From contig CAVSLC010000023.1 in the NCBI GenBank assembly GCA_963728565.1, forward strand, positions 160,001 to 224,000: a stretch of 64,000 nucleotides of DNA, given 5' to 3'. Positions 35,868 through 64,000 of this stretch are shown piece after piece. How positions within the stretch are numbered: position 1 is the first letter of the stretch; each line of letters starts with the position of its first letter. The DNA comes from an uncultured delta proteobacterium (GTDB lineage: Bacteria; Desulfobacterota; Binatia; UBA9968). Both the position numbers and the translations under genes were made by a program. Below the pieces are notes generated by a model. It had not been told where the DNA came from and did no database searches. It was given only the letters and a program-made list of their open reading frames with translations.

Positions 35868-36257
35868 TCACCGGAGCCCCGGACATTTGGCCGGAGTTGT
35901 CCGTCGGCCGGAACCCTGCGACTTTTCGCGACGGCACTGACACTCGGCACAAAAGGTCGTTTCAGGCGCCGTTTGGAGGCGGTGCAGTTCGATGGGCCGC
36001 CGGCAACCGATGCAAGTGCCGTAGGCGGCTTCGCGCATCCGGATCAGCGCGTGATCGATTCGTGTGGTCTCACTGGCATACCACTCAGCTAATCTTTCGA
36101 GCAGATGACGTCTGCTTTCGTAGGCCGCTTTGTCGATTGAGTGTTTATTTTCGACCAGCGTCCGTTGTTCTTGATTTAGATAGTCTAGCGTCCGCAAGAT
36201 TTCGACTCGGCGCTGGTATAGTCTTTCAAAATACTGCTCGGTTTTTTTTACGATCAT
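35868..36257 (-). CDS. TraR/DksA-family C4 zinc-finger protein
   Basis: YGTCIGCRRPIELHRL..PETTFCAECQ; SD AAAGGAG. Confidence 0.85.
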   Translation of the reverse strand: MIVKKTEQYFERLYQRRVEILRTLDYLNQEQRTLVENKHSIDKAAYESRRHLLERLAEWYASETTRIDHALIRMREAAYGTCIGCRRPIELHRLQTAPETTFCAECQCRREKSQGSGRRTTPAKCPGLR

Positions 36258-36724
36258 CTGATCTCCTTTGCGATCCGTGCCAAAATCAGCCATAACCCGT
36301 CGCGCAGTGTCTTGACGAGTTCCTGCATCATTTCTTTGAGGCGTTTACCGTCTCCGGCGTTCAGGTAAATCGCCGCCGGCGCGTCGGGTTGCTTGAAATT
36401 ATGAACGTAGACCCAATCGCCGGGTGTGGCGCTGGAAGACACGCGCTCAGCGATCCACCGGCGCAGCGTCTCTAATTTACCGGCGCCGGTCAAACCCGAC
36501 ACAAAAATGTTGTAGCCGCTGCTCCCCACTCCGAGCCCCAATTCCAAGGCAGCGAGCGCGCGTTCCTGGCCGACGAATTCTCTCGCGCCGCTCAGCTCGC
36601 GAGTCGAGGAAAATTTGCCGGCGATCTTGGTCTCAAAGTGCAGATCTTTCGCGCTCAGCTCACGCGGGCGAGTAGAGGATTCGGTCGCGGGCTCGAGAGT
36701 TGCCAATTCACTGTCGCCATTCAT
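36254..36724 (-). pseudogene. N-terminal fragment of a Lon-like (LonB/LonC-type) ATP-dependent protease
   Basis: FVGQERALAALELGLG..GYNIFVSGLTGAGK and DWVYVHNF..P..P. Similarity ends after ~140 aa. Confidence 0.75.
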
Positions 36725-37149
36725 GCTGCTTCTCCTGCAGGTTTTTTGGCTTTCGGTATGGTCACGCGCAACACGCCTTCATAGAACTCCGCTTTGATCT
36801 GGCTGGCATCGACCGACTCCGGCAGTTTCAGGCGCCGTATGAAGTGGCCCGATGAGCGCTCCATCGTATGAAAGTGGCCGTGACGATGGGTTTCTTCCAA
36901 CGCACGGGAGCCCTGTAAGAGCAAATCGCTGTTTGCAATCTCCACCTTTACATCATCGAGCTTGACCCCAGGAAGATCAGCTTCCAACATGAAAGCATCG
37001 TCCATTTCATAGAGATCCACGGATGGATTCCAGCCGCGCATCTCACGGCAAAAGCCCCAAGGCCGATGAATCATCTCGTCGAAAAGGCGCTCCACTTCGC
37101 GCGAGACATGAATTGGAAACGAAATTAGGTCGTTCGGGGTTTTCGCCAT
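36721..37149 (-). CDS. Hsp20/alpha-crystallin small heat shock protein
   Basis: PSVDLYE, ADLPGV, ERSSGHFIRRLKLP, AEFYEGVLRVTIPK. Confidence 0.93.
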   Translation of the reverse strand: MAKTPNDLISFPIHVSREVERLFDEMIHRPWGFCREMRGWNPSVDLYEMDDAFMLEADLPGVKLDDVKVEIANSDLLLQGSRALEETHRHGHFHTMERSSGHFIRRLKLPESVDASQIKAEFYEGVLRVTIPKAKKPAGEAA

Positions 37150-37207
37150 CGCCGCAATTCCTCCTCATTCGTGGGCTGCATACTTTACCGTGTCCCACAT
37201 CAGTAAA

Positions 37208-37223
37208 CGCAACGGCCGTGCCA
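37208..37223 (-). promoter_or_regulatory. Sigma-54 -24/-12 promoter (hsp20)
   Basis: Minus strand TGGCAC-GGCCG-TTGCG. Confidence 0.8.
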
Positions 37224-37347
37224 CGTACATGCTTGATTTTCTTGCCGGTTTGCAGCGAGACAGGCGGTGTTTCTCAAACGTGGGAAGGGGCGGCATGGTG
37301 TCTTGCAAATCTTGCGAAGGGGCCTCGCGCCGCCACTCAAACATTAC

Positions 37348-37411: not shown

Positions 37412-37741
37412 ATGGCAGAGAGCCTCCAGTGTATGATGGGCAGTGACACTTCGGTTACGGAACCATTCTTCGCTACTCTGCGCCGAAGTGAACATCTCGA
37501 GCCGGAAAAGAATTTATTGATCGCGATTCTGCGGGATGCGATTCATGATTATCGCAAGTACTGCCGGGCTCGAGATCCGGAGGGGAGGGGACACTTCCGA
37601 GAAGCGCAGCAGTGGATCATGGCAGGCGGTAACAACTGGATTTTTTCTTTCAATAATATATGCGAATTTTTAGGTCTCGATCCGGATTACATTCGTCGTG
37701 GGCTTAACGAGCCGGATGCAGATCGTAACACCAAAAGATAA
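37412..37741 (+). CDS. Hypothetical protein, 109 aa
   Basis: SD-like AGGAAGG and its own sigma-54 promoter. Helical sequence EKNLLIAILRDAI...FSFNNICEFLGLDPDYIR. Confidence 0.7.
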   Translation: MAESLQCMMGSDTSVTEPFFATLRRSEHLEPEKNLLIAILRDAIHDYRKYCRARDPEGRGHFREAQQWIMAGGNNWIFSFNNICEFLGLDPDYIRRGLNEPDADRNTKR

Positions 37742-38587: not shown

Positions 38588-38938
38588 AGTGGCCTCGTCC
38601 TTCGGTCGGCTATCGCTTCATTCATCATAGTGCGGGCGGCTCTGCCAATTGATGGCTGATGGCATTTTTTTGTTAAAGCAACTTCCACTCCACCACGTGC
38701 GCTGCCCCATGCACTCGCCTCCTTGTCGACCGGATGCTAGTGGCCGCATGTTACTTAAGCGAGCGCCATAGTTCTTTCCTTTCGGTGCTCGCTGACTTAA
38801 AAAAAGGCGGCAAGAGCCATGCAATTATAGGTTAATAATTAGATCGCTTTCTTCGCAATGCTGGGAAGAACGTTCATGCAGGATTCGCACGGATGCAGAA
38901 CCGCAGGAGCTATTTAAAATCAACTGGCTGAGTAATAG

Positions 38939-38991: not shown

Positions 38992-39477
38992 ATGCCAATT
39001 ATCAAAAAACTTAAAGACCTCTTCGACGAGACAAAGGTTAGTTACGAAGTCTACAACCATCCGCTGGCGTATACCGCGCAGGAGATCGCTCAGAGACAAC
39101 ACTTCTCTGGTAATGAGATGGCCAAGGTTGTGATGCTCAAGGTGGACGGCAAAATGGTGATGGCGGTGGTTACCGGGAATCAAAAAGTGCACCTGCCTAC
39201 CGCACGCGCAAGCCTCGCCGCCTATGAGGTGAGTTTGGCGACGGAAGACGAGTTTTATTCTAAATTCCCGGGCTGCGAAATCGGCGCGATGCCGCCGTTT
39301 GGGAATTTGTATGGTCTACCTGTTTACGTTGACCCGGCGGTAACCAAGGATGAATGGATTTACTTCAATGCCGGAAACCACGTTCAGACGGTTCGGATCC
39401 GCTATAAGGACTTCGAAAAACTCGTAAACCCACAGGTGGTCCGATTGACTGAGGAGAAGAAACAGCATGCAGCCTAA
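38992..39477 (+). CDS. YbaK/EbsC-family aminoacyl-tRNA deacylase
   Basis: MAKVVML, GCEIGAMPPFG, FNAGNH. Confidence 0.88.
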   Translation: MPIIKKLKDLFDETKVSYEVYNHPLAYTAQEIAQRQHFSGNEMAKVVMLKVDGKMVMAVVTGNQKVHLPTARASLAAYEVSLATEDEFYSKFPGCEIGAMPPFGNLYGLPVYVDPAVTKDEWIYFNAGNHVQTVRIRYKDFEKLVNPQVVRLTEEKKQHAA

Positions 39478-40180
39478 GACTCCAGGCAACCATCGGCGTG
39501 AGCTGGCGCGTTTATCAGACGTATTTCTAGGAAATATCCGGTCGTCGTAGCCGGGATGCCGAAAAACAGCCTGAGGGTTTAACTCGGCAGATTGCCGCCT
39601 TCGACTCCGGACCGCAGCCTCATGGCCGCGCTTGGTTGCAGAACCATCCCTGGAAACTCACAGAGTCTTCCCCCAAGCACATCATCAGAACAATCGATTA
39701 TTCGAGGCAACCTGATAGTGTGCCCAGTCAAGGGAACGGTTGTGCAGTCTCCAGACCCACGTAGTCTCTAGCGACACTTTCACTGAAGCACTTGGCGAGG
39801 CCGGGGTGACCCGTCGGCTGGCAAAACTAAACGTGCGAATGGCGATCGTGGCGACGCTGCGATCGCGTCAGCAGCACGTTCAGAATCACCATCAATAAGG
39901 ATAGGAGCACGAAATAGAAGAACAGGCTTTCGGTTACCATACTCCACCTCCGCTTCAAGAGTTTCTAGTTGAAGTGAGCGCAAAGCCAATGCCAACCCGC
40001 TGCCACCATAGGCCCGCCGCGCCCTTACAAATCCTATGGGATTGCTATGCGTTTGCTTGACACCACCGATCGACGGAAATAAAGCTATTCCCAGCTTCAA
40101 GAAAGGTAACGCAAGTTTCGAGAATCGCGATATCTCGAATCAATTGCTGCGGACGACCCGAAAACACGGGCCGGCAACAC

Positions 40181-42760
40181 ATGCCTGTATTGACTGAAGT
40201 CCAACAGAATGTTGAGGCTCCCGTAACCAGGCAGCAACGCGCGCTCGAGGAGTCCGATTTACTGTTACGTCTTTACCGAGCGCTCATCGAGAATCCCGAC
40301 CTATCTTCCGGCCTCCGCGCCGCTCTTGAAATCGTGTGTCAATTTACCGGTTGGGTTGTTGGAACCGCGTGGCTTCCTTCAGACGACGAAACAGAAATAA
40401 GGCTCTGCTCCTCGTGGCATGCAGACGATCCAAAGCTCGCCGAGTTTATTGGCCTTTGCCGGCAGCTGTCGTTTCCCCGCGACGTTGGCATCCCCGGCCG
40501 GGTTTGGCACCGCGGAAAAGATGAGTGGACGCGCGATCTGGCCGCTGAGCCTGCCGAACCGTTCCCTATGGCACCTGCGGCGAAACTTGCGGATCTCAAA
40601 GCCGCCTTCGCGGTTCCGATCACTCACGATGAGGACGTTGATGGCGTGTTGGTGTTCCATGCGCGCGAGGCGAAGGAGGAAGACGGACGTCTAACGCAAG
40701 TCGTTTCCACCATCGCAACCCAGCTAGGATTCGCGCTCCAGCACAAACGGCTCGAAGAAGAACTCTTGAAGCAGCAGGCTTTGGTCCGTCGAAGCCATGA
40801 AAACTTGGAAGAACAGGTTGAGCAGCGAGTGCGGCAGCAGGAGGCCGTAGTCGATCTTGGCCGCCAAGCCCTAGGCGGAGCGGACTTGTCAACGCTCATG
40901 CGCTCGGTTACCGAGTTAGTCGCCAAAACTTTGAGCATCGAGTTTTGCAAAGTGCTGGAGCTGCTGCCCGGGAATGACGCTTTTCTTTTACGCGCGGGGG
41001 TCGGGTGGAGGGAAGGGCTTGTCGGCCAGACAACCGTGAGCGCCGGCACGAACTCACAAGCCGGCTATACGTTGCTCTGCAAAGAGCCGGTGATCGTTGA
41101 AGATCTCCGGAAAGAAGCGAGATTTATCAGGCCGCCGCTGTTGCGTGATCACGCGGTCGTAAGCGGCATCAGCGTCATTATCGGACACAGCGATCATCCT
41201 TACGGAATTCTTGGAGCGCACAGCGCAAAGGCGCGGGCGTTTTCACAAGACGACATTCATTTCTTGCAGGCGATAGCTAACGTGCTTTTCCAAGTTATCG
41301 AACACAATCGCGACTTGGCAGAGATTCGGCGCAACGCCACCTGGCTGCAGCGTCTCATCGATACTACCCAAGACGCGGTTGTTTCCATCGACCGGCGCGG
41401 CTGTATCGTCTTGTTCAATGCCGCCGCGGAACGAGTGTTCGGCTACAGCGCGGACGAGATTGTCGGACGCAAGGTCAATGAACTGATGGCCGAGCCCTAC
41501 GCCACCGAGCACGACGGTTATATTGCCCGCTACGAACGGACCGGCGAGCCACGCGCCATTGGCCGCATCCGCACAGTGGAGGGACGGCGTAAGAGCGGCG
41601 AGACCTTTCCCCTCGAGCTTTCAGTGACGCAAGTCGCGACCGCTGAAAACGAAGAAGTTCACTACGCCGCTTTTATCCGGGATATTTCCGAAGTGAGACG
41701 GGGCCAGGCCTGGTTGCAGAGCCTGATCGAAACAACGCAAGATGCCGTCCTGTCCATCGATCGTCAAGGGCGGGTTGTTCTATTCAATCCGGCGGCTGAA
41801 CGGATATTCGGTTATCCGCGCAACGAAGTTATCGGAGAAAAGGTCAATATGCTCATGGCGGAGCCGTATGCTACAGAGCACGATGAATATATCGCGCGCT
41901 ACGAAAGAACCGGTGAAGCCCGCGCCATTGGCCGGATTCGAACAGTCAGCGCGCGGCGAAGTAATGGCGAGCCCTTTCCCATCGAGCTCTCCGTCACTGA
42001 AATATCAGTAGATCAAGAAGTGCATTATGCCGCCTTCATTCGCGACATCTCGGAGAAAACCAAGTTACAGAACCAGCTGATGGAAACCGAACGGCTGGCT
42101 GCCATCGGCAGCACGGCGGCTAAGATCGGCCATGAGCTCGCCAATCCGCTTAACGGAATGTCCCTGACGATTCAGCTGCTGGAGCAGCGTCTCAGCAGGC
42201 TCAGCGATAGCGCCGGGACTCAATTGACCCCGACTGTGAAAAGACTCAAGGACGAAATCTCCCGACTGCAGAAATTGGTCGGAGAGTTCGCAACAATCTC
42301 GAGAAAAGAAAAATATGTCCTTCGACCGATCAACCTGAAGCAACTAGTCGAAGATATTGTTGACCTACAAGCGCCCCATCTTGCGCAGAGCGGGATAGAG
42401 CTAAAGACTTCCGTACCTTTTGATCTGCCGGTCATCAGGCTCGATAGGGATAAGATGAAGCAGGCTCTGCTCAATCTGGTTAAAAACGCCGGCGAGGCGA
42501 TGCCTCAGGGCGGCAGGATCACCATTGATGCCTTTACGGCGGACGACGCAATCATACTTGAGATTACCGATACCGGAGAAGGTATTCCTCTGGACATCGA
42601 TGCGTTTGAGCCTTTTGTGACCACGAAGGAACAAGGTACCGGGATCGGATTGGTCATAGTTCGGCAAATCCTCGCCGCCCATGATGGAAAAATATCCTAT
42701 CGAAGTAAACCGGGAGAAGGAACTACCTTCCGGCTGGAGCTGCCGCAAGGATTGGGTTAG
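40181..42760 (+). CDS. Soluble sensor histidine kinase GAF-GAF-PAS-PAS-HisKA-HATPase with FixL-like heme PAS domains
   Basis: Two copies of MAEPYATEHDxYIARYERTGExRAIGRIRTV; H box GHELANPL; NLVKNA, DTGEGI, GTGIGL. No TM segment. Confidence 0.9.
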   Translation: MPVLTEVQQNVEAPVTRQQRALEESDLLLRLYRALIENPDLSSGLRAALEIVCQFTGWVVGTAWLPSDDETEIRLCSSWHADDPKLAEFIGLCRQLSFPRDVGIPGRVWHRGKDEWTRDLAAEPAEPFPMAPAAKLADLKAAFAVPITHDEDVDGVLVFHAREAKEEDGRLTQVVSTIATQLGFALQHKRLEEELLKQQALVRRSHENLEEQVEQRVRQQEAVVDLGRQALGGADLSTLMRSVTELVAKTLSIEFCKVLELLPGNDAFLLRAGVGWREGLVGQTTVSAGTNSQAGYTLLCKEPVIVEDLRKEARFIRPPLLRDHAVVSGISVIIGHSDHPYGILGAHSAKARAFSQDDIHFLQAIANVLFQVIEHNRDLAEIRRNATWLQRLIDTTQDAVVSIDRRGCIVLFNAAAERVFGYSADEIVGRKVNELMAEPYATEHDGYIARYERTGEPRAIGRIRTVEGRRKSGETFPLELSVTQVATAENEEVHYAAFIRDISEVRRGQAWLQSLIETTQDAVLSIDRQGRVVLFNPAAERIFGYPRNEVIGEKVNMLMAEPYATEHDEYIARYERTGEARAIGRIRTVSARRSNGEPFPIELSVTEISVDQEVHYAAFIRDISEKTKLQNQLMETERLAAIGSTAAKIGHELANPLNGMSLTIQLLEQRLSRLSDSAGTQLTPTVKRLKDEISRLQKLVGEFATISRKEKYVLRPINLKQLVEDIVDLQAPHLAQSGIELKTSVPFDLPVIRLDRDKMKQALLNLVKNAGEAMPQGGRITIDAFTADDAIILEITDTGEGIPLDIDAFEPFVTTKEQGTGIGLVIVRQILAAHDGKISYRSKPGEGTTFRLELPQGLG

Positions 42761-42770: not shown

Positions 42771-42786
42771 TGGCTTGGGTATTGCT
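42771..42786 (+). promoter_or_regulatory. Sigma-54 -24/-12 promoter (response regulator)
   Basis: TGGCTT-GGGTA-TTGCT. Confidence 0.65.
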
Positions 42787-42861: not shown

Positions 42862-42879
42862 TTTCTCAGAACTGAGAAA
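42862..42879. promoter_or_regulatory. Perfect palindrome, candidate activator binding site
   Basis: TTTCTCAG-AA-CTGAGAAA just before the regulator start. Confidence 0.65.
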
Positions 42880-42892: not shown

Positions 42893-44239
42893 TTGACCGG
42901 GACAATACTAGTCGTTGAAGATCAAGAATCGGCGCGTGAAAGTTTAGTCGAGTTATTGAGAGGGGAGGGGTTTGAAGTTCATGCCGCCGCTGACGGCAAA
43001 GCCGGCATTGAGTTCGTCGATCAATACGATCTCGATGTGGTGCTTACCGATTTAGCCATGCCCCACGCCGACGGTATCGCCGTGCTGCGGCACATTCGTG
43101 AGATCTCGCCGCAGACATTGGTAATATTGATGACCGCACATGCTACGGTCGAGACCGCCGTCGAAGCCATCCGTCTCGGCGCCCAAGACTATCTGCTCAA
43201 GCCGCTTATTTTTGAAGATGTGCTGCGCAAAGTGCAGCATTTGATGAACCATCGGAAGCTTGCCTGGGAGAACCAGCTGCTGCGCCGCGAGATCAATACC
43301 CGCTTCAGTTCCGATCGGCCGCTCGGGCGCAGCCAGGCAATGCAGGAAATCGCCCGCTTAATAAAAAAAGTCGCGCCGGCTCCCACCACGGTTCTAATCA
43401 CCGGCGAGAGCGGCGTCGGCAAAGAAGTGGTTGCGCGCACGATTCACGCGCACAGCCGGTTCAGCGATAATGTGTTTCTGCCGGTAAACTGCAGCGCCAT
43501 TCCGGAAAATCTTCTCGAGAGTCAGCTGTTTGGACACGTTAAAGGCTCCTTTACGGGAGCCGTGAGTTCTCAAGAAGGCCTGTTTCAAAGGGCGCGCGGG
43601 GGCACGATCTTCCTCGATGAGATCGGCGAAATGCCGCTGACCCTTCAGCCAAAGCTGCTGCGCGTGCTCGAAGAAAAAGTAATTCTTCCGGTGGGCTCGA
43701 CAAATCCCGTCAAGGTCAATGTGCGCATACTGGCGGCAACCAATCGCGATCTCAATGCCGAAGTGGAAGCCGGGCGCTTTCGCGACGATTTATTTTATCG
43801 TCTGAATGTATTCGAAATCAATATTCCGCCGCTGCGCAAGCGGCTTGACGATCTGCCGGGGTTGGTGGAGCATCTTATCCAGCGCCACAACCAGGAGATG
43901 AACACGACCTATAAAGGCGTCGATAGCGCGACCATGCGGATTCTCATGTCGTTTCCGTGGAAGGGAAACATCCGTGAGCTCGACAACGTTCTGGAGCGCT
44001 CGATGATTCTGGGCGACGGCGAATGGATCAAGCCGTCGGAACTCCCTGGGCAACAAACCGACGGCGGAGAATTCAATTACGAGGATAGTCTCAGCGCGGC
44101 GCTTGATCTCTACGAAAAAAGCCATATCGAACGCACTTTGAATAAAGCCGGCGGCGACAAGATACGGGCGGCCGAGCTCATGGGATTGAGTCTCTCGACG
44201 CTTTACCGAAAGCTCGAAAAACTGGGTATCGAGAGCTAA
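42893..44239 (+). CDS. Sigma-54-dependent response regulator (NtrC/AtoC family)
   Basis: Receiver VLTDLAMP, GESGVGKE, GSFTGA, FLDEIGE, FRDDLFYRL, WKGNIREL and Fis HTH. Confidence 0.95.
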   Translation: MTGTILVVEDQESARESLVELLRGEGFEVHAAADGKAGIEFVDQYDLDVVLTDLAMPHADGIAVLRHIREISPQTLVILMTAHATVETAVEAIRLGAQDYLLKPLIFEDVLRKVQHLMNHRKLAWENQLLRREINTRFSSDRPLGRSQAMQEIARLIKKVAPAPTTVLITGESGVGKEVVARTIHAHSRFSDNVFLPVNCSAIPENLLESQLFGHVKGSFTGAVSSQEGLFQRARGGTIFLDEIGEMPLTLQPKLLRVLEEKVILPVGSTNPVKVNVRILAATNRDLNAEVEAGRFRDDLFYRLNVFEINIPPLRKRLDDLPGLVEHLIQRHNQEMNTTYKGVDSATMRILMSFPWKGNIRELDNVLERSMILGDGEWIKPSELPGQQTDGGEFNYEDSLSAALDLYEKSHIERTLNKAGGDKIRAAELMGLSLSTLYRKLEKLGIES

Positions 44240-44386: not shown

Positions 44387-45748
44387 ATGCTTGCGGACAT
44401 TAAAACGAGCGCACTGCTGACCGATCTCTACCAGCTGACGATGCTGCAAGGTTACTTCGATCAGGGGATGAAGGAGACCGCGGTCTTTGAATTTTTCATT
44501 AGAAAGTTGCCGGCAAAGCGCAATTTTCTCATTGCAGCGGGACTCGAGCAGGCATTGGCGTTTCTCGAACAGGTACAGTTTTCCCCGGAGGAACTTGAGT
44601 GGATCGCAGGCTACGGCGCTTTTCGCCCCGCCTTTGTACGGCATCTGGAAACCTTTCGCTTTACCGGCGACGTCTATGCGATGCCGGAAGGAACCCTGTT
44701 TTTCCCCGACGAGCCCATCTTACGTGTGATCGCGCCCATCGCCGAAGCACAGTTGGTCGAAAGCCGATTGATCAATCTAATTCATTTTCAGACTCTGATC
44801 GCTTCAAAAGCGGCGCGCTCGGTGTTGACGGCGCCGGACAAGCTGCTGGTGGATTTTGGCTTGCGGCGCGCCCACGGGGCAGAAGCCGGATTATTGGCGG
44901 CGCGCGCGAGCTACCTCGCTGGTTTTGCCGGCACCGCGACAGTCATGGCGGCGCCGCTTTTCGGAATCCCGGTGTACGGCACGATGGCGCATTCCTTTGT
45001 CCAGGCCCACGATGATGAGGCCGCCGCCTTCGATCACTTCGCGCATTCATTGCCGGAGAACGTCATTCTGCTGATCGATACTTACGATACCGAAGCCGCT
45101 GCGGAAAAGGTCGTTCGTCTCGCGCCCAAGCTGATGCGCGACGGCATCAAGATCAAAGGGGTGCGGCTGGATAGCGGCGATTTGGCCGATCATGCATTCA
45201 AGGTGCGGCGTATTCTCGACCACGGTGGGCTGCAAGATACCACCATCTTTGCCAGCGGCAGCGTCGATGAATACATCGTTGAGCGCCTGATGCAGCAAAA
45301 CGCGCCCATCGACGGATTCGGCATCGGCACGCACATGGATACTTCCGCTGATGCTCCTTATTTAGATTGCGTCTACAAATTGGTTGAATACGCCGGCAGA
45401 GCGCGGCGCAAGCGCTCGGAAGGGAAGGCCGTGTGGCCGGGCCGCAAGCAGGTGTTTCGCCGCTACGGCGCAGATGGCGGCCTGCACGGCGACATCCTTT
45501 CGGTCGACGGCGAGCGGTTAGAAGGCGAGCCCTTAATCACAGCGGTGATGAAAGGAGGACGGCGCCTCTCACCGGCGGAGTCTTTGCAGCAATCCCGGCA
45601 GCGGGCGCTGGGGGAGCTGAAGCGTTTACCCGAGTCGCTCAAGAGTTTAGAAGCTGCGCCGGCCTATACGGTCACCGTTTCCGCAGCGCTGAAAAACCTC
45701 GCCGCCGAAGTTGACGCGCTCCAAGCCCATGCCTACGGTCGAGATTGA
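44387..45748 (+). CDS. pncB: Nicotinate phosphoribosyltransferase
   Basis: LLTDLYQLTM, DFGLRRAHG, GTMAHS, LIDTYD, VRLDSGD. Confidence 0.93.
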   Translation: MLADIKTSALLTDLYQLTMLQGYFDQGMKETAVFEFFIRKLPAKRNFLIAAGLEQALAFLEQVQFSPEELEWIAGYGAFRPAFVRHLETFRFTGDVYAMPEGTLFFPDEPILRVIAPIAEAQLVESRLINLIHFQTLIASKAARSVLTAPDKLLVDFGLRRAHGAEAGLLAARASYLAGFAGTATVMAAPLFGIPVYGTMAHSFVQAHDDEAAAFDHFAHSLPENVILLIDTYDTEAAAEKVVRLAPKLMRDGIKIKGVRLDSGDLADHAFKVRRILDHGGLQDTTIFASGSVDEYIVERLMQQNAPIDGFGIGTHMDTSADAPYLDCVYKLVEYAGRARRKRSEGKAVWPGRKQVFRRYGADGGLHGDILSVDGERLEGEPLITAVMKGGRRLSPAESLQQSRQRALGELKRLPESLKSLEAAPAYTVTVSAALKNLAAEVDALQAHAYGRD

Positions 45749-46372: not shown

Positions 46373-46392
46373 CGAGCACCTCCCTATTTCCT

Positions 46393-47190: not shown

Positions 47191-47206
47191 GGCAAACTAT
47201 ATGCCA
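47191..47206 (-). promoter_or_regulatory. Sigma-54 -24/-12 promoter (dksA-BON/CBS)
   Basis: Minus strand TGGCAT-ATAGT-TTGCC. Confidence 0.75.
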
Positions 47207-50433: not shown

Positions 50434-50569
50434 AATTCCAAGATCCATGAGGATAACTTAACGCGCCGAAAATTTTCAATTTTGCAGTTTTAGGAACGAA
50501 TTTTTCGCAGTTCTTAAAATGAAATTGACGAAGACCCCAATCGATGGTTGGAGTCTTAGCCGCTCCGCT

Positions 50570-50585
50570 TGGCATTCGATATGCT
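50570..50585 (+). promoter_or_regulatory. Sigma-54 -24/-12 promoter (HPF-CSD)
   Basis: TGGCAT-TCGAT-ATGCT. Confidence 0.7.
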
Positions 50586-50636
50586 CCTTTGAAGAATCAC
50601 ATCGTGATGGTCCACTGTAAAACGGGAGGTGCAACC

Positions 50637-53131: not shown

Positions 53132-54466
53132 TTGGTCATGCTCAAAGAAAAAATGACGAGAGCGCCAGCTGAAGCCGCCGAACGTGACTACCGGCGTGTC
53201 GTGAACGCATGGGCGATGTATGATTGGGCGAACTCCGCGTTTGCCGTCATCATGCTAACCGCGGTTTTCCCGGTGTACTATCGCTCTTTGGCTACGACCG
53301 CCGGGTACGCTGCCGAAGATGCAACCGCGTACTGGGCCTATACTACATCACTGTCTCTGCTGGTTGTTGCTCTGGTTGGCCCGGTGCTCGGGGCGATCGT
53401 CGATATACTTGGCGCCAAGAAGCAGTTCTTGGGCGTCGCTCTGGCATTGGGCGCATTGGGTTCGCTGAGCCTGGCGTTTTTGGGCAAGGAAACGCTCTTG
53501 CTGGGTGCTCTTGTGTTCGCGATTGCCAACCTGGGTTTTGCCGGCGGAAATATTTTTTACGAGGCCTTGCTTCCGGACGTGGCGCGGGTCGATGACATCG
53601 ACCGTGTTTCGGCGCGCGGTTATGCGCTGGGATATCTTGGCGGAGGGCTTCTTTTGATCATCAATATCCTTTGGCTCCTCCGGCCGGGTTGGTTTTGGAT
53701 GCCTGACCGGGAGTTTGCGTTGCGCGCGAGCTTTGCCAGCGTGGCGGTATGGTGGGTTGTTTTTGCTTTGCCGTTGTTTTACTCGGTGTCTGAGCCCGGA
53801 AGCCGCCGCCGGACGCCTATTTCGTTGAGCGTGATCACCAAAGGCTTGCAGCAACTACATCGCACGGTCAGCCGCATTGGGCACTACAAAGAGCTGGCGC
53901 TTTTTCTTCTCGCCTTCTGGATCTACAACGACGGCATCGGTACCATCATCAAAATCGCCACGGCTTACGGTGATGAAATCGGCATCGATCACAATCAGAT
54001 GCTGATCGCTCTTGTCTTAACTCAACTCATTGGCTTTCCGTGCACGCTTGGATTCGGCCTGCTCGCTCGTCTCCTCAGCGCGAAACGCGCCGTTTTGCTC
54101 GGGCTTGCCGCTTATATGATTATTTCGATTGCCGGCTTTTTCATGACAAATGCTTGGCACTTCTACGTGCTGGCGGCTGCCGTGGGCATCGTTCAAGGCG
54201 GGACGCAAGCGCTAAGCCGATCGTTGTTCGCGACCATGGTTCCCAAGACGCGTACCACGGAGTTTTTTGGCTTCTACAGTACCGGAGAGAAAGTAGCAGG
54301 TATCGTTGGACCAAGCATATTCGGGCTGGTGGGACAACTCACGGGTAGCAGTCGGTGGGGAATCGTATCCGTGATTGTGCTGTTTATCGCCGGCGCTGCG
54401 TTACTCTGGCGTGTAGACGAACGCGAGGGCCGGCGCGTGGCCGAAGCAGTGGAAGATTTTGCCTAA
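53132..54466 (+). CDS. MFS transporter, UMF1/ATG22-like
   Basis: WAMYDWANSAF, GYALGYLGG, YNDGIGT, GGTQALSRS, EFFGFY. Confidence 0.88.
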   Translation: MVMLKEKMTRAPAEAAERDYRRVVNAWAMYDWANSAFAVIMLTAVFPVYYRSLATTAGYAAEDATAYWAYTTSLSLLVVALVGPVLGAIVDILGAKKQFLGVALALGALGSLSLAFLGKETLLLGALVFAIANLGFAGGNIFYEALLPDVARVDDIDRVSARGYALGYLGGGLLLIINILWLLRPGWFWMPDREFALRASFASVAVWWVVFALPLFYSVSEPGSRRRTPISLSVITKGLQQLHRTVSRIGHYKELALFLLAFWIYNDGIGTIIKIATAYGDEIGIDHNQMLIALVLTQLIGFPCTLGFGLLARLLSAKRAVLLGLAAYMIISIAGFFMTNAWHFYVLAAAVGIVQGGTQALSRSLFATMVPKTRTTEFFGFYSTGEKVAGIVGPSIFGLVGQLTGSSRWGIVSVIVLFIAGAALLWRVDEREGRRVAEAVEDFA

Positions 54467-54543: not shown

Positions 54544-55167
54544 TTACCGTCGATCGACGAAGCGCTCGTCGAGCGTTTTAAGCTTCTCTACGATTCCTGT
54601 GTATTCCAACTCTGACATCGGCAGCATTGCGGCACCGAAGAAGCCTTGACGGCGCATACCGATGGCTTTTTTTGCAACGACGTCACGTACCGTATCCCAG
54701 AACGGGTGGGCGAAGGCGTCCACGGGCTCGGTCATCTTGCCGCGATGCATGGCAAAAGCAGCACAGCTAACCACGGGCGGCCCGTCGAAGTAGCTGATGC
54801 CTGAATTGAGCACGACGGGCATTAGCGGCATCTGGTGCGAGCCGCGCATCGCTCCGGCAACATAGGGGCCGATGGCATATGGGGAAAGAATCTCCCCTGT
54901 GGCTGGAAAATCCTTCTGCACACGGGCGAGCATCACGGGATCGTCTTTGCCGGTGTATTTGCCGGCAATGTTGTGTAACCGCGATGTCGAGACAGCTACC
55001 GCCTGTTCGGCTGTGCTACGCGACCAAACGGATTCCACCACATAACGCTCAGTGTCTCTCAGCAGGGTGGCGATGGCGTAGAGCTCCTCGGGCGCGTTTA
55101 ACTCGATGATGCGGTCGTGTTCCGTGCAATTCACATCCATGATGACAAACCTGAACCCGTCGCTCAT
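54544..55167 (-). pseudogene. C-terminal fragment of fructose-1,6-bisphosphate aldolase/phosphatase (class V FBPase)
   Basis: YTGKDDPV, MRGSHQMPLMPV, FDGPP, RRQGFFGAAMLPMSELEYTG. N-terminal portion absent. Confidence 0.8.
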
Positions 55168-55380
55168 GGCGGGATTAGGAGAGGATCCACCGTCGCAATA
55201 AAAACCACGCTACGGGGAATAACGTCTTGATCTATTCACCTCTTTTGAGACACTATTCCGGCTGAATCCGGCGCGCTGTAAGACCAGAGATTCCTTCCGA
55301 TAGGAATCGACGACTCCTCCTAGGGGAGGAGATATCTCCAGCCCAGCCATGATTGCCCCAGATCGATAGGGATACGCATA

Positions 55381-56774
55381 ATGCGACGCACAAAAATTAT
55401 ATGCACCGTTGGTCCTGCTATCGAATCAGCTGAGATACTTCGCAAGTTGGTGGAGGCCGGCACCGATGTCTTTCGTCTCAACTTCGCTCACGGAACGGTA
55501 AGCGGACACCAACTCATCATGGGCCGCATTAGCGACGTCGCGGAGGAGACCGGAAAGGCCGTTGCCATCTTTCAGGACTTAGCCGGTCCGTAGACCGGCT
55601 TGGCGTTTTCAAAGATGGATCGGTACGAGCTTCATGCCGGAGATCGATTCCGCCTCACGAGCGAGGACCTTCTCGGGAATCATGAACACGCTTCGGTTAG
55701 CTATTCCGAACTTCCTGACGAAGTGAGGCCAGGCCAAAGCATTATACTTGCCGATGGGACTGTGGAGCTCGAGGTCGAATCAACCGGCTCCACGCGACGA
55801 TCGTTTGCCGAGTCGTTCTCGGTGGAGTTATTACCAGTGACAAAGGCGTCAACGTGGTAGGAGGAACCTCAAGCTTGCCCGCCTTCACCGAGCGTGACCA
55901 GGAACTTCTTCTGTCCGGCCTTGAAGCATGTGTGGATCTGGTTGCACTCTCCTTTGTCCGCTCCGCGGTTGATGTTCAGTCTGCCCGAAGTTTCCTCGCG
56001 ACCCGCCGAGGCAAAGCTTCCTCTAATGGCGAAAATCGAGAAGCTCGAGTCGTTAGACATTATAGACGAAATCATTGCTGTCGCTGATTCCATCATGGTA
56101 GCGCGCGGCGATCTTGGTCTTGAAGTTCGATTGCGAAGTGCCGCATATCCAGAAGGAACTGATCGCCAAAGCGATCCAGGATGTCAAACCTGTGATGACA
56201 CTACATAGATGCTTCCTTCATGGTTGAAAAACCTCGACCACCGTGCGGAGGTAGTCTGACATTCTAACGCGGTACTCGACGGTTCCGATGCTTTGATGCT
56301 TTCAGAGGAAAGCACAGTGGGCGCCTATCCTGTGGAGGGAGTCAAGGATCTGGCAGAGATGCCGAGGTAGGAAGCCCGGCTTTTTGCCCGGCGTCACTTA
56401 ATTGCCTGTCTCCGATCAAGCATTCCGCCGCTGAAGCATGCGAATGTCGCAAGGTTGAGGCGCTCCAGGTCAAAGCGACAGCGATTATATGCTGCACCCG
56501 GACAGGCCAGACAGCTCGGCTTGTGGCCAAATACCGACCGGTCCAACCCATTATAGCTATCATCCCTGAGCCCCAAACCGTGCGGCCGCTCATGCTTGTC
56601 TGGGGTGTCCAGCCATTTCTGCTAGATGAATGCAGATCGATTGACGCAATGATAAAGGCGGCAATTGACCTTACTTCCAAAAAAAGGATTGTGAAGCCCG
56701 GAAAAGTAGTGATCGTGGCGGCCGCCCCATATTCTCCCCGAGGAGAAACGGATTTCCTCCGTGTTGCTAATTGA
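55381..56774 (+). pseudogene. pyk: Pyruvate kinase pseudogene
   Basis: [47 protein letters not shown]. In-frame TAGs at 55591 and 56206 plus several frameshifts. Confidence 0.88.
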
Positions 56775-56941
56775 ACTACGGACGGGGCGAGACGGTTGAG
56801 AAAAGAACGAGGTTACGGAACGACGCTGTCGCGCGTGCAGACGCCGATAGTTGCGTAAATCCCAAGGCATCGTTTTGCGGTGATCTAATGTCGCCTTAAT
56901 GCTCGTGGCTGCGCGTGGAAGATCAATCACCGGAGGGCTTT

Positions 56942-57260: not shown

Positions 57261-57542
57261 CCTAGCGGGACCAAGCTAGGCAATAGTCAGAAAGCTGCTC
57301 GGAATCTGGCGTAAAGAGTAAGCAGCCTATATACCAACAAGGCATCTCTTCTAGTTTGACATTTATTAAGTCAAACTTCCCAGCTGAGCGGCGGCCGATA
57401 TTTTTCTAACAAAAGAAGGCGCGAGCGGTGTTAACCATGATGCAAAGGTTGCATGTCAAGATATAATTGCGGCTCTGAGACAGTTCCTAGCGTGACCAAG
57501 CATGTATAGTTATAAAGCTGCTCGGAATCTGGCGTAACGAGT
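57261..57542. repeat. Imperfect ~58-bp direct repeat pair (57261-57319 and 57486-57542)
   Basis: Exact 24-bp core AAAGCTGCTCGGAATCTGGCGTAA at 57291 and 57514. Confidence 0.75.
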
Positions 57543-60053: not shown

Positions 60054-60482
60054 CTATGGCCACAGCTCTTGAAGCGTCTTTGGGAGCAGGTGTTTGACTT
60101 TCTCGGTCTCTCCGGCATTGATGTGCCGCGCAAGGACCTTGAGAACCGAACGCATGACCTTCTCAGGGTCCACCGTGTCGTCGTCCCGAAACACAACCGC
60201 GATGTGATCCAGGAATTCGCTCTTGTGGCGCTCCCTCACCGGCTTTCCGGTGAGTTTCCATCCCTCATAGTAAATACCCCTTATGAGGATCGGCAATTGT
60301 GCTCCGAGATGAACGGCTTCCTCGTTGGTCAACCGGTCGCGCAGGGCATGCAACGCCGTGCGTAGAGCCAGGCACGCCTTCTGCGGCTTTTCTTCCCATC
60401 CGAGCTCGCGCATGAGATCATTTAACCATACCTGGGTTTTTTGCAGCGACGCATCGAAAACCTCTAAGACAGCGCTACTCAT
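60054..60482 (-). CDS. DUF2267-family protein
   Basis: ALRTALHALRDRL..EAVHLGAQLP..IRGIYYEGW. Confidence 0.85.
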   Translation of the reverse strand: MSSAVLEVFDASLQKTQVWLNDLMRELGWEEKPQKACLALRTALHALRDRLTNEEAVHLGAQLPILIRGIYYEGWKLTGKPVRERHKSEFLDHIAVVFRDDDTVDPEKVMRSVLKVLARHINAGETEKVKHLLPKTLQELWP

Positions 60483-60556
60483 CGACGACTCCTCACTCCA
60501 TTTTCAGTGGACTACGGCGCGCGGAAACCACCCATTTCGGCTTGTTCTTCTCCTGG

Positions 60557-60572
60557 TGCAATTATGGCGCCG
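60557..60572 (-). promoter_or_regulatory. Sigma-54 -24/-12 promoter (DUF2267)
   Basis: Minus strand CGGCGC-CATAA-TTGCA. Confidence 0.55.
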
Positions 60573-60730: not shown

Positions 60731-60746
60731 TGGCATATCGGTTGCG
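60731..60746 (+). promoter_or_regulatory. Sigma-54 -24/-12 promoter (HAD-ATPase)
   Basis: TGGCAT-ATCGG-TTGCG. Confidence 0.78.
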
Positions 60747-60862
60747 TTTCAAATTCTCTCTCGTATACGCGGATTTATTGGTCGTAGAACCGCAGTGCGC
60801 GCTATTTGCCGCAGCGGTAGAAAACCGATCTGCTTCAATAAGCCCAACAAGTCTGAGGAGGA

Positions 60863-62602
60863 GTGCAAGTGTATTGTCGTGCGATCGCTTGTGATTTTGA
60901 CGGTACTGGAGCGACTAACGGCCGTCCGGCGCCGGAACTTTATGCCGCGTTGGCGGCAGCACGCGGAGACGGAATCGTTACGCTTCTGGTAACCGGCCGG
61001 GTTTTGGAAGACGTACAACGCGCCTGCGAAGAGTTGTCGCCGTTCGATGCAGTAGTGGCTGAAAACGGTGCGATCATTCATCTCTGCGGTATCGACCGGA
61101 CGATTCAGCTCGGTCAGCCGCCGCCGGAACATTTTCTCGGTGAACTGCGAGCTCAGGGGGTGCCGTTTCACAGTGGCGCCGTTATCATTGGTACTTGGGA
61201 ACAACACGCTAACAAACTGTTAGAACTGGTTCGCCGTCTGGGTATCGACGGGCAGTTGGTTTTCAACCGCGCCGCACTGATGCTATTACCCAGCGGGATT
61301 AACAAGGCGATCGGTATCCGCCGCGCGTTGGATGAGTTGGGGCGTTCGGAACGTAGTTTAATCGCTTTCGGCGATGCCGAGAACGACATACCGATGTTGA
61401 TGAGTGCGGAGATGGGCGTGGCAGCTTGGGGATCAGTTCCAACGGTGGTAGCCCTCGCCGACGATTTCGTTGCGCAACCTGGCGGCGCCGGTGTTTCTCT
61501 CTATATCGGCAAGATCATAGAAAAACGCGGTATCGTTGCGACACCAAAGCGACGGGCGGTGGTACTTGGAACCTCATCGGACGGCTCTGAGGTGAGATTG
61601 CCCAGCTCAGGTACCAACGTTGTCATCAGCGGGGACCCGCGATCCGGCAAATCCTGGATCGCGGGAGTTCTATCGGAACAGCTTATTGAGGAAGGCTACC
61701 AGGTTTACATCATCGATCCTGAGGGCGACTATGCACAGATGGGGCAGCGTCCAAAGGTTGTGACCTTTGGGCCTGATTTAGCTTTGCCTTCTTCAGGGGC
61801 CGCGGCGCGGCTGCTCAGCAGCGAGCCACTCAGCACAGTATTCATACTCTCATCGTTAGCGCCTGACGAGCAGTGGAAATACGTCGACGAACTGCTCACG
61901 GCCACTCAACGAGTGCGAGATAATACGGGACTACCACACTGGGTGGTAGTCGACGAAGCTCATTACTTTTTTCAGGCAGGGAGCCCTTTGCTGAGGCATC
62001 TTAGCAGCACGACCGGGAGCTTGTGTCTGGTGACATACCGTCCGAGCTTACTCGCCGACGAAGTGTATGGATCGATCGGTGCGCATATAGTCACCAGCAC
62101 GAAAGTCGAAGACGAGCGTTACTTCGTGACTAAGATTCTTCAGGCGCATGATGGTCTCGATGTTCAAGCGCACGTAGCGCTCGACTCGCTGGAGGTGCCG
62201 CGCGCAGGATTGCTGTTAACGGCTGCGCCTGAAACGCGTTGGCAAGTTTTTACTCCGAGCAAACGCATTTCGCGCCATGCGCACCACGCTCGCAAATACG
62301 CTGATACGCGTCTATCCCAGGACAAGGCATTCCGCTTCATCAATGCGGGCGAGCCGCTTATTGCCTACAATATGATTGAATTCCATCGGGCCATCCAGTC
62401 AGCGCCTCTCGCTTCCTTACGTCATCATCTGAGTAAAGGCGACTTCTCACGCTGGGTGGGCGAGATCATTGGCGACGAGCAACTTGCCAGTGGCTTGCGT
62501 AAACTGGAGCGTAGCACCCTGCCTGGCTCAACTCTCGACCGTTCGGAGATCCTCGCCCATATCGACGACCATTATTTGATTGAACGGAGCGGAACGCAGT
62601 AA
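60863..62602 (+). CDS. Cof-type HAD phosphatase fused to a P-loop ATPase domain
   Basis: DFDGT, VTGR, AENGA, GDAEND; Walker A GDPRSGKS, IDPEGDY, Walker B VVVDEAH. Confidence 0.82.
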   Translation: MQVYCRAIACDFDGTGATNGRPAPELYAALAAARGDGIVTLLVTGRVLEDVQRACEELSPFDAVVAENGAIIHLCGIDRTIQLGQPPPEHFLGELRAQGVPFHSGAVIIGTWEQHANKLLELVRRLGIDGQLVFNRAALMLLPSGINKAIGIRRALDELGRSERSLIAFGDAENDIPMLMSAEMGVAAWGSVPTVVALADDFVAQPGGAGVSLYIGKIIEKRGIVATPKRRAVVLGTSSDGSEVRLPSSGTNVVISGDPRSGKSWIAGVLSEQLIEEGYQVYIIDPEGDYAQMGQRPKVVTFGPDLALPSSGAAARLLSSEPLSTVFILSSLAPDEQWKYVDELLTATQRVRDNTGLPHWVVVDEAHYFFQAGSPLLRHLSSTTGSLCLVTYRPSLLADEVYGSIGAHIVTSTKVEDERYFVTKILQAHDGLDVQAHVALDSLEVPRAGLLLTAAPETRWQVFTPSKRISRHAHHARKYADTRLSQDKAFRFINAGEPLIAYNMIEFHRAIQSAPLASLRHHLSKGDFSRWVGEIIGDEQLASGLRKLERSTLPGSTLDRSEILAHIDDHYLIERSGTQ

Positions 62603-62682
62603 TCTCGACGGCCAGGGTCGCGGCGGCGTTGTCGGCGAATCTGGCGGCGCAGTTTGTTCGCCGAATGCATGGCACGCCGCCA

Positions 62683-64000
62683 TTAGGATGCCGTGGCCGC
62701 CCGCGGTGCCGGCTGGGCAGCTTCGATTTCCAGGATTCTAATCGTCGTTTTGAGAACCGCATCGGGATTGAGCGAGATGCTGTCGATGCCCAATGCGACG
62801 AGAAAAGCGGCAAACTCGGGATAATCACTGGGCGCCTGGCCGCAGATGCCGATCTTTTTGCCTTTGCTCCTGGCGGCTTGAATGACACTGCCAATCATTT
62901 TTGTCACGGCCGGATTGCGCTCATCGAAAACATGCGCGACGATCTCCGAGTCGCGGTCCACGCCCAGAACGAGCTGGGTCAGATCGTTGGAGCCGATGGA
63001 GAAGCCGTCGAAGATATCGGCGAATTCGTTTGCCAGGATGACGTTACTGGGAATTTCGCACATGACGTAGACCTGCAGTTCGTTGATGCCGCGTTTCAAT
63101 CCGTGTTTTTCCATCTCTTCGAGCACGCGCCGCCCTTCCCCCACCGTGCGGCAGAATGGAACCATAAGCTTCACGTTGGTGAGGCCCATTTCGTCGCGCA
63201 CCTTTTTCATGGCGCGGCATTCCAATGCGAAGCCGGCTTGATAACGCGGATCGTAGTAGCGTGAAGCGCCGCGGAAGCCGATCATGGGATTCTCTTCAAT
63301 AGGTTCGTACGCCTTGCCGCCGATCAGGTTCGCATACTCGTTGGTCTTGAAGTCGCTCAGGCGGACGATCACGTCCTTGGGATAAAAAGCGGCGCCAATC
63401 ATGGCCACGCCTTGAGCCAGCTTGTCGATGAAGAACTGGGACTTGTCATTGTAACCGGCGGTAAGCCGCTCGATCTCGACGCGCGCGGCGTGGTCTTCGA
63501 GGCGGTTGAAGTCGAGCAAGGCCAGCGGGTGAATCTTGATATAGGTCGTGATGATAAACTCTTCTCGCGCGAGACCGACTCCATCGTTGGGCATAAACGA
63601 CAGGTGAAAAGCCTCCTCCGGATTCCCGACATTCATCATGACCTTGGTGTGCGGTCTCGGCAGCTCTTGAAGGTTGATGCGTTCGATATCGAATTGCAGG
63701 GAGCCCTCGTAAACAAAGCCGATTTCACCCTCGGCGCAGGAAACCGTGACCGCTTGCCCGTCTTTCAAGTTTTCGGTCCCATTGGCAGTTCCGACCACCG
63801 CTGGTAGACCCAATTCGCGACTGACAATCGCCGCATGGCAAGTTCTGCCGCCGCGATCGGTGACGATCGCCGCCGCTTTTTTCATGGTCGGCTCCCAATC
63901 GGGATCGGTTTTTTCCGTGACGAGGACGTCGCCGTCCCGGACCTCGTCAAGATTCTGAGCGCTTCTGACGACGCGCACGGGCCCGCGGGCGATTTTTTCG
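62683..64000 (-). CDS. ppsA: Phosphoenolpyruvate synthase, C-terminal part (5' end outside window)
   Basis: [50 protein letters not shown]. Confidence 0.95.

Follow-up and report, generated by a model that had tools for sequence, protein, structure and literature searches.

Gas-sensing two-component systems that drive sigma-54 regulons are a known kind, and the nearest published case to the one considered here is NmpRSTU of Myxococcus xanthus. The present system, a predicted sigma-54 regulon with its own sensor kinase and activator genes, lies in a 64,000-nucleotide (nt) stretch of DNA (hereafter the window) from an uncultured delta proteobacterium of the Binatia (Desulfobacterota; GenBank assembly GCA_963728565.1). 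The window is C23:160,001-224,000 (contig CAVSLC010000023.1) of a 28-contig, 4.53 Mb assembly labelled G000, with a completeness of 80.6% and a contamination of 5.8%. NmpRSTU is reported to be a four-protein relay that runs from a globin-coupled (protoglobin) haem kinase through a second hybrid kinase to the NtrC-like regulator NmpR (PMC11841059). NmpR binds GCGCA-N5-TGCGC, often as two sites 14-15 bp apart, upstream of sigma-54 promoters, and a site also precedes the sensor kinase operon nmpU (PMC11841059). The NmpR regulon has 7 promoters and 23 genes, which are scattered and include a hypoxia-induced operon of CBS and universal stress protein (USP) genes; it is read as an O2-utilisation set with cbb3 oxidase, HemN and hemerythrin (PMC11841059).

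Set against what that account describes, the window shares with NmpRSTU a haem-type sensor kinase, an NtrC-like activator, a palindrome before sigma-54 promoters, and CBS and USP genes, although binding to the palindrome is here predicted from sequence. Unlike the described relay, it has a single adjacent kinase with two FixL-type PAS domains plus GAF domains, and its site is TTCNCA-N4-TGNGAA. The predicted regulon also differs from the one described there in being approximately three times larger, with about 20 clustered promoters and a dormancy-type content.

Two further oxygen-responsive systems provide comparisons. Rhizobial FixL has as its partner FixJ, a LuxR/FixJ-type regulator that acts at sigma-70 promoters. 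The window kinase is similar to FixL in its haem-PAS matches (1e-27 to 3e-28), its retained aligned histidine and its HisKA-HATPase transmitter. In contrast to FixL/FixJ, there are two haem-type PAS domains and two GAF domains, and the adjacent regulator is an NtrC-type sigma-54 activator. In the mycobacterial system, DosS and DosT hold haem in GAF domains, DosR is a NarL/LuxR-type regulator that uses sigma-70-type promoters, and pncB2 belongs to the DosR regulon. Unlike in DosRST, haem is predicted in PAS domains in the window, the regulator is an AAA+ enhancer-binding protein (EBP), and the promoters are of the -24/-12 type with a different palindrome rather than Dev boxes. The gas-sensing haem kinases DosS/DosT, with DosR, control about 50 genes in blocks (PMC5309233). 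At the family level, there is a likeness that covers Hsp20, several USPs, CBS, S30AE, phosphoribosyltransferase (PRTase), RtcB and P-type ATPase (PMC5309233). This likeness concerns gene families and not the orthology of individual genes.

The low-oxygen-activated (lxa) locus of Burkholderia cenocepacia is rich in USPs and other stress proteins, and we know of no sigma-54 or NtrC-type wiring for it. It is reported to be a large contiguous chromosomal locus activated at low O2, a comparable island but in a different phylum (PMC6127331, PMC12973609). Searches of open-access papers and bioRxiv, supplements aside, turned up no account of a sigma-54 stress regulon in Binatia and none of a haem-PAS kinase whose partner is an NtrC-type activator. 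What distinguishes the present system is its convergent, DosR-like and island-organised output.

A sequence-only reading of the window had proposed a hypoxia and dormancy programme under an embedded haem-PAS kinase and sigma-54 activator. The architecture, a shared palindrome and the overlap with DosR families uphold that proposal in part, whereas the O2 trigger and co-induction are predictions. For the whole model, in which one sigma-54 regulon is governed by the embedded kinase-activator pair and responds to O2, we estimate a probability of about 0.62.

Sigma-54 promoters and their shared palindrome

A sigma-54 matrix was trained on 38 intergenic, gene-oriented TGGCAY-N5-TTGC sites of G000 outside the window. 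Ten -24/-12 elements had been claimed in the sequence-only reading, and nine of them score 9.5-23.6 bits (seven strong, two moderate); the remaining one, placed at 60557 on the minus strand, is weak, at <6 bits. Each was said to stand upstream of a gene in matching orientation, and all are indeed 23-117 nt from a same-strand start codon. The statement that none occurs in the first 31 kb also agrees with the scan, which finds no non-coding matrix match of 10 bits or more at 1-35.8 kb. The accepted promoters fit a TGGCAC-N5-TTGC-like sequence in which GG and GC are exactly 10 nt apart. The promoters and the weak candidate are as follows.

37209-37223, minus strand: promoter of the Hsp20 operon, TGGCACGGCCGTTGC, 20.0 bits
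37348-37362, plus strand: promoter of the gene for a 109-amino-acid (aa) protein, TGGCACATCGGTTGC, 22.8 bits
38939-38953, plus strand: promoter of the YbaK-like gene, GGGCATGCTTCTTGC, 14.7 bits
39980-39994, minus strand: extra strong promoter, absent from the earlier list, 15.5 bits; precedes a hydrophobic open reading frame (ORF) of 37-43 aa (39827-39958)
42771-42785, plus strand: promoter between the kinase and activator genes, 12.6 bits; counterparts in G015, G017 and G010
47192-47206, minus strand: promoter of the DksA-BON/CBS operon, TGGCATATAGTTTGC, 17.7 bits
50419-50433, minus strand: moderate promoter of the PRTase and kinase-like genes, TGGCACGCGCCGTGC, 10.0 bits
50570-50584, plus strand: moderate promoter of the gene for a hibernation factor fused to a cold-shock domain (HPF-CSD), TGGCATTCGATATGC, 9.5 bits
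51651-51665, plus strand: promoter before small ORFs and the second tandem USP gene, GGGCATGGCAATTGC, 14.0 bits
60545-60559, minus strand: weak candidate (the earlier 60557), CGGCGCCATAATTGC, CGGCGC-N5-TTGC, <6 bits
60731-60745, plus strand: promoter of the HAD/HerA-like gene, TGGCATATCGGTTGC, 23.6 bits

Here and below, G010, G011, G013, G014, G015 and G017 denote relatives, and L024 is a further relative locus. Orthologues of the HPF-CSD gene have sigma-54 sites of 13-19 bits together with a palindrome in G013, G014, G011 and L024. The start codon closest to 51651 is that of a 62-aa ORF; the start of the USP gene is about 400 nt further downstream. The candidate at 60545-60559 keeps the GG/GC spacing despite its score of <6 bits, and the palindrome at 60656 is 112 nt away. 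Weak sigma-54-like matches on the minus strand at 44361, 49382, 59899 and 57322 were rejected, as they overlap a start codon, have no downstream gene or have no palindrome.

In a genome-wide scan, which had been put forward as a check on the sequence-only reading, the 28 kb region from 35,868 to the window end is enriched by both the strict consensus and the matrix. Strict TGGCAY-N5-TTGC has 95 matches in the genome, with 5 in this region against 0.59 expected. The region also holds 6 of the genome's 100 non-coding matrix matches of 12 bits or more (Poisson 4.7e-5), and it ties for the densest 28-kb sigma-54 cluster of the 4.53 Mb assembly. Chance clustering of the promoters was rejected on the statistics of this enrichment and of palindrome-promoter pairing.

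A 16-bp palindrome, TTCNCA-N4-TGNGAA, stands upstream of most promoters of the cluster, typically by 55-97 nt. It occurs between the divergent pairs 37209 (minus)/37348 (plus), 50419 (minus)/50570 (plus) and 60545 (minus)/60731 (plus), and also upstream of 38939 (plus) and 47192 (minus). The copies in the window, for which no strand is given, are listed here.

37271-37286: palindrome common to two divergent promoters, TTCTCAAACGTGGGAA, 17.9 bits (relatives-only matrix), 63 and 77 nt from the TGG elements
38852-38867 and 38884-38899: two palindromes 32 bp apart, 17.2 and 13.1 bits, 87 and 55 nt upstream of the 38939 promoter
42863-42878: perfect palindrome, putative autoregulatory site, TTCTCAGAACTGAGAA, 18.9 bits, 15 nt upstream of the activator start and downstream of the 42771 promoter
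47339 and 47370 (47339-47385): two palindromes 31 bp apart, 9.5 and 14.6 bits, 148 and 179 nt upstream of 47192 (minus)
50481 and 50504 (50481-50519): two overlapping-phase palindromes between divergent promoters, 11.8 and 12.4 bits
60656-60671: palindrome between divergent promoters, TTCTCAGCAATGATAA, 14.5 bits, 75 nt upstream of the 60731 promoter

The palindrome was recovered de novo from two sets of sequences. A greedy search of 8 intergenic regions of the window returned TTCYCA-N4-TGRGAA with an information content of 11.64, compared with 9.81-10.67 in 8 of 8 dinucleotide shuffles. This margin is modest, and the tests that are independent of the window are stronger. A de novo search of 21 upstream regions from six relatives, with the window genome excluded, returned the same palindrome. 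In the syntenic contigs of seven relatives (182 kb), 15 matches with at most one mismatch occur against about 1.5 expected when the background rate of G000 is applied to these 182 kb, and nearly all of the 15 are beside sigma-54 sites. When a matrix built from relatives only was run over the 4.53 Mb, the ten best non-coding matches all fell on C23, nine of them within 100 nt of a sigma-54 site.

The pairing with promoters is confined largely to the cluster. At distances of 40-200 nt, 30 palindrome-promoter pairs (22 distinct sigma-54 sites) lie in C23:195,868-292,500, which is 2.1% of the genome, compared with 17 pairs elsewhere and about 15 expected by chance genome-wide. A few good pairs are found outside the cluster (C10:78628, C11:160254 and C9:110833). 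Distances from palindrome to TGG bunch at 55-67, 74-77, 86-89 and 95-97 nt, and at seven promoters a second palindrome lies 30-32 bp from the first. Such bunching and tandem spacing are as expected from EBPs that assemble on one face of the helix.

Sigma-54 use in G000 is unusually heavy. At least 54 EBP-like matches occur in 4.5 Mb, and 42 strict, intergenic, gene-oriented sigma-54 sites are spread across many contigs. Because of these EBP numbers, sigma-54 promoters as such are common in the genome, and the feature specific to the cluster is the palindrome. Several unrelated sigma-54 regulons could thus adjoin one another only through this wide use, with no single programme, and three window promoters without a good palindrome would suit that explanation: 39980 (minus), which has only a weak copy at 40088 (9.0 bits); 42771 (plus) on its upstream side; and 51651 (plus), with no palindrome of 8 bits or more. 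However, one palindrome is common to the promoters, can be recovered from relatives, is confined to the cluster and is regularly spaced from the promoters, and the same families stay linked to the kinase-activator pair despite a shuffled order. An assembly of unrelated regulons is already disfavoured and hardly credible on this evidence, and a single regulon is highly probable.

A FixL-like kinase beside an NtrC-type activator

The two regulatory genes embedded in the cluster are adjacent.

40181-42760, plus strand: sensor histidine kinase, 859 aa, GAF-GAF-PAS-PAS-HisKA-HATPase (Pfam)
42893-44239, plus strand: NtrC-family EBP with receiver, sigma-54 AAA+, lid and HTH_8 domains (Pfam PF00072, PF00158, PF25601, PF02954)

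Protein families were assigned with Pfam and NCBIfam profiles, and the PAS and GAF domains were compared with PDB. PAS1 and PAS2 of the kinase match FixL haem domains, with 1dp6 at 3e-28 and 1d06 at 1e-27. In PAS1, EHDGYIARY aligns with the FixL motifs RHDSYISRY and EHDGYLQRY (1dp6, 8js5, 1d06) and keeps the histidine, which we take to be the haem ligand (the proximal histidine of the F-helix). PAS2 carries the corresponding motif EHDEYIARY, and the flanking arginines are aligned as well. The best NCBIfam model of the kinase is FixL (NF041777), at 333 bits against a cut-off of 850; thus the protein has a FixL-like sensor module and is not a FixL orthologue. Comparison of its GAF domains with PDB gives neither DosS nor DosT at E 1e-5 or better. 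A paralogue of the PAS2-transmitter part, 58% identical, is encoded at C11:170313-171383.

By analogy with FixL, O2 limitation is somewhat favoured as the trigger. An alternative keeps the regulon and its regulators as proposed and replaces the signal: the stimulus of the PAS domains would be nitric oxide (NO), carbon monoxide (CO) or redox state, or a metabolite or nucleotide would be the ligand of the GAF domains, and the output would be a general starvation, nitrosative or oxidative response. As a class, haem-PAS proteins take O2, CO and NO as ligands, and PAS2 also matches the DosP/EcDOS haem-PAS. Two GAF domains precede the PAS pair and could receive a signal other than a gas. In G013, G014 and L024 the orthologous kinases align over the C-terminal PAS-kinase part only, so that the input module varies and the N-terminal part is not conserved. 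KatG, OsmC and a CDF efflux protein are, moreover, among the predicted targets. Given KatG, OsmC and the variable GAF input, the signal may instead be NO, CO, redox or another stress, and the presence of KatG in the regulon fits oxidative stress as well as hypoxia. Nevertheless, both PAS domains have their closest structural counterparts in the O2-sensing domains of FixL, with the histidine motif and the flanking arginines aligned. The targets also include NrfHA and families that are typical of hypoxia regulons (PMC5309233). A signal other than O2 is therefore an unlikely alternative, and the target list, with nitrite ammonification, hibernation, chaperones, salvage and RNA repair, suits survival at low O2.

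The activator is a complete NtrC-type protein. Its sigma-54 contact loop is GSFTGA, and GAFTGA or GSFTGA is present in 7 of the 7 orthologues read. It scores below the cut-off of every named NCBIfam EBP equivalog (AtoC, NtrC, ZraR and others). Regulators of this family bind dyad-symmetric sites some 80-150 bp upstream of the promoters they serve, and the conserved palindrome is suitably placed to be such a site. Nine relatives have orthologues at 70-95% identity, and among named public records the gene comes closest to a Candidatus Binatia metagenome-assembled genome (MAG), at 79% identity. The kinase gene is directly upstream of the activator gene in 7 of 9 loci. In 5 of the 9 (G000, G010, G013, G014, G015), the palindrome occurs 15-35 nt upstream of the activator start codon. 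Its location in the window, between the activator's sigma-54 promoter and start codon, suggests autoregulation.

Sequence comparisons make the embedded activator the likely binder of the palindrome. A different regulator could fill that role, either the 61%-identical activator paralogue at C10:132847, which could share the DNA specificity, or a repressor or activator that is not an EBP; the embedded pair would then control a few neighbours only. The paralogue has a similar helix-turn-helix region, and its immediate neighbours are a sigma-54 site and a gene paralogous to that of the 109-aa protein. The good palindrome-promoter pairs outside the cluster would also accord with another binder, as would the palindrome at 42863, whose position downstream of a promoter is more typical of a repressor site. 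Yet no palindrome of 11 bits or more is present at the paralogue's own locus, and in other genera the palindrome tracks orthologues of the embedded activator and precedes their start codon at the loci given above. Furthermore, in five genomes of the same genus the paralogue is the only one of the two activators, and a close HPF-CSD is missing from these genomes as well. Control by another regulator is thus quite improbable. The paralogue belongs to a smaller second system at C10:131622-134187 of G000, made up of a strict sigma-54 site, a 109-aa-protein paralogue and the paralogue itself.

Gene content, extent and conservation of the cluster

The family calls of the sequence-only reading, namely Hsp20, two tandem USPs, a CBS pair, PncB, PRTase, an AAA_33 P-loop kinase and S30AE/HPF, were confirmed with Pfam and NCBIfam. 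Apart from the two regulators, the genes are these.

35868-36293, minus strand: DksA/TraR-type zinc-finger protein, last gene of the Hsp20 operon (PF01258); the ORFs overlap with upstream genes
36254-36724, minus strand: small protein with a LonC helical domain (PF20437), linked to Hsp20 in G014 also
36721-37149, minus strand: Hsp20/alpha-crystallin (PF00011), 59 nt downstream of its promoter
37412-37741, plus strand: 109-aa protein without a Pfam family; seven paralogues in the genome, and the same divergent arrangement in G014 and L024
37775-38587, minus strand: tandem USP (PF00582, two stretches); only a weak sigma-54 site, at 38678 on the minus strand (9.2 bits)
38992-39477, plus strand: protein with a YbaK-like aminoacyl-tRNA editing domain (PF04073)
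44387-45748, plus strand: nicotinate phosphoribosyltransferase PncB (NCBIfam NF006696, 655.7 bits against a cut-off of 503)
45947-46396, minus strand: CBS-pair protein, second gene of the DksA-BON operon (PF00571)
46393-47166, minus strand: DksA-like zinc finger fused to a BON domain (PF01258, PF04972; NCBIfam DksA-like, below cut-off)
47679-49385, minus strand: APH-like N-terminal part and AAA_33 P-loop kinase domain (PF13671); Atlas matches lead to APH-type phosphotransferases
49546-50310, minus strand: PRTase-domain protein (PF00156)
50544-51275, plus strand: ribosome hibernation factor S30AE fused to a cold-shock domain, HPF-CSD (PF02482, PF00313)
52065-52973, plus strand: tandem USP (Pfam); orthologues stand directly after sigma-54 sites in G011, G015 and G017
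53132-54466, plus strand: ATG22/MFS transporter (PF11700), which follows the USP gene in G014 too
60054-60482, minus strand: DUF2267 protein (PF10025)
60863-62602, plus strand: HAD-IIB phosphatase fused to a HerA/DUF87-like ATPase (Pfam, NCBIfam); follows the YbaK-like gene in G014

The genes for Hsp20, the LonC-helical protein and the DksA/TraR zinc finger form a single leftward operon. Proteins that resemble the 109-aa protein fall in Atlas clusters commonest in Candidatus Binatota. The PncB gene of G014 has its own palindrome and sigma-54 site. The true start of HPF-CSD is likely to be near 50608, as alignments with relatives begin at residue 26-34.

Since palindrome-promoter pairs continue beyond 64 kb, the part in the window is the left third of a larger cluster. 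This cluster covers about 97 kb (C23:195.9-292.5 kb), from 35.9 kb in the window to about 68 kb past its end, with about 20 promoters. The predicted targets past the window, each with the palindrome and a sigma-54 promoter upstream, are listed below.

124-aa protein, then archease, RtcB and Prs
AMP-forming ligase
Second Hsp20
DoxX
CBS pair, then a 115-aa protein, NrfH and NrfA, with a divergent USP
Glycogen-phosphorylase-like protein with a P-type cation ATPase
CoA-binding/CBS protein
PaaA-like protein with OsmC and a CDF transporter
HlyD with an ABC transporter
C23:290039-292491: KatG (catalase-peroxidase), with a tandem palindrome and an 11.9-bit sigma-54 site

The overlap with DosR families grows past the window, where RtcB, P-type ATPase, a second Hsp20 and more USP and CBS genes are added. 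All the DosR-like families (Hsp20, USP, CBS, S30AE, PRTase, PncB, RtcB and P-type ATPase) are behind the palindrome and sigma-54 promoters of the cluster.

Synteny in related genomes, also proposed as a check, supports the cluster as a unit: linkage of its gene families with the kinase and activator genes extends to at least six genera and includes a named Candidatus Binatia MAG. In other genera the gene order is shuffled and the linkage is kept, and the families conserved across genera are Hsp20, USPs, CBS, HPF, PncB, PRTase, RtcB, P-type ATPase and NrfAH. Directly beside the activator gene in G010 (C163), G013 (C30), G014 (C38) and L024 there is a sigma-70-family gene, in the place that PncB occupies in G000. 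Its product is 38-47% identical to the RpoD of the window over residues ~130-624 and may be an alternative sigma factor belonging to the programme.

To the left of the cluster, 27641-31362 holds dnaG, rpoD and tRNA-Met(CAT), the last at 31286-31362. The tRNA gene is 4.5 kb from the first regulon gene, and the gap contains small ORFs without a Pfam family. A mobile island was considered and rejected on the lack of a tRNA repeat, the lack of an integrase family and a flat GC content. The 3' half of the tRNA has no exact repeat of 16 nt or more elsewhere on the contig, and the ten ORFs tested beside tRNA-Met include no integrase family. At gathering threshold, Rfam finds only tRNA at 30-64 kb.

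The cluster also contains an approximately 3 kb degenerate patch. At 54544-55167 (minus strand) there is a shortened class-V fructose-1,6-bisphosphatase (FBPase_3) that covers profile positions 160-360 of 361 only; over these 207 residues it is 82.5% identical to its orthologue in G014. At ~55380-56780 (plus strand) lies a decayed pyruvate kinase, with pieces of the PK barrel in different ORFs, split by stops and frame changes. A 37-nt direct repeat (57283-57319 and 57506-57542; 92% identical, 223 nt apart) is found in a stretch of about 900 bp without good ORFs, and it matches no Rfam family at gathering threshold.

Weighing the model and its meaning

In the proposed mechanism, the two FixL-type haem-PAS domains of the kinase would sense O2, with NO or CO less probable as ligands. 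As in FixL, loss of O2 from the haem (the deoxy state) would switch the kinase on. The kinase (40181-42760) would then phosphorylate the adjacent activator (42893-44239), which in this state would assemble at the palindromes and cause the sigma-54 promoter complexes to open, so that the targets would be induced together. The predicted output is a survival programme with two Hsp20 chaperones, HPF-CSD for ribosome hibernation, USP and CBS proteins, and DksA-like factors. It would extend to salvage of nicotinamide adenine dinucleotide (NAD) and nucleotides (PncB, PRTase, Prs), archease-RtcB RNA repair, a P-type ATPase, NrfHA nitrite ammonification and KatG.

Several observations count against this model, in addition to the wide use of sigma-54 in G000, the promoters without a good palindrome, the sub-cut-off FixL score, the GAF domains and variable input module of the kinase, the activator paralogue on C10, and KatG and OsmC, which were discussed above. 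First, rpoN (PF04552, PF04963) was not found in the contigs of G000, an assembly that is 80.6% complete. It was found in 20 of 20 relatives searched, including 7 of 7 of the same genus; this tally includes the unpublished genome G012. The tally and the search for EBP and activator orthologues took in genomes flagged as unpublished (G012 and G018), and no locus of theirs was used. Second, the search for sigma-54 promoters yielded none for the kinase gene, two window promoters reach only about 10 bits, and one from the earlier list is at <6 bits. Third, 5 of the 7 same-genus genomes searched have only the 61% activator paralogue and no close HPF-CSD. As these five lack both the activator and a close HPF-CSD, the system is not core to the genus and is present or absent as a unit. 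RNA libraries speak neither for nor against the predicted starts, as their contigs carry no start or strand information and DNA carry-over is possible. In soil and sediment RNA libraries the matching shares are small, at 5-8% of sampled words. Contigs from four RNA runs (three studies) are 92-99% alike to the window and thus come mostly from relatives. They cover parts of the Hsp20/LonC-helical, 109-aa, USP, YbaK-like and PncB genes and the 3' part of the activator gene, and one crosses the 37348 promoter.

We tentatively consider, at slightly less than even odds, that the Binatia, an uncultured lineage of soil, independently assembled a functional equivalent of the DosR regulon. It would be a convergent and accessory 'dormancy island', contiguous over about 97 kb with about 20 promoters and run wholly through sigma-54, in which a single FixL-type tandem haem-PAS kinase would act as a hypoxia switch by signalling directly to an NtrC-type activator.

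For a phylum without a cultured member, the cluster yields a complete regulon model open to laboratory testing, with a sensor, an activator, a 16-bp site, about 20 promoters and spacing rules. Its combined palindrome and promoter signature offers a means of detecting the programme in metagenomes and of interpreting soil metatranscriptomes with regard to O2 stress. If the model is true, a FixL-type haem-PAS kinase is paired directly with a sigma-54 activator. In the literature searched, the nearest pathway found from a haem sensor to an NtrC-type protein is the Myxococcus relay. With O2 as the signal, bacteria that are only very distantly related would have converged on the same survival gene set under unrelated transcription machinery. 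Such convergence would speak for the gene set, rather than the regulator, as the selected unit of hypoxic persistence.

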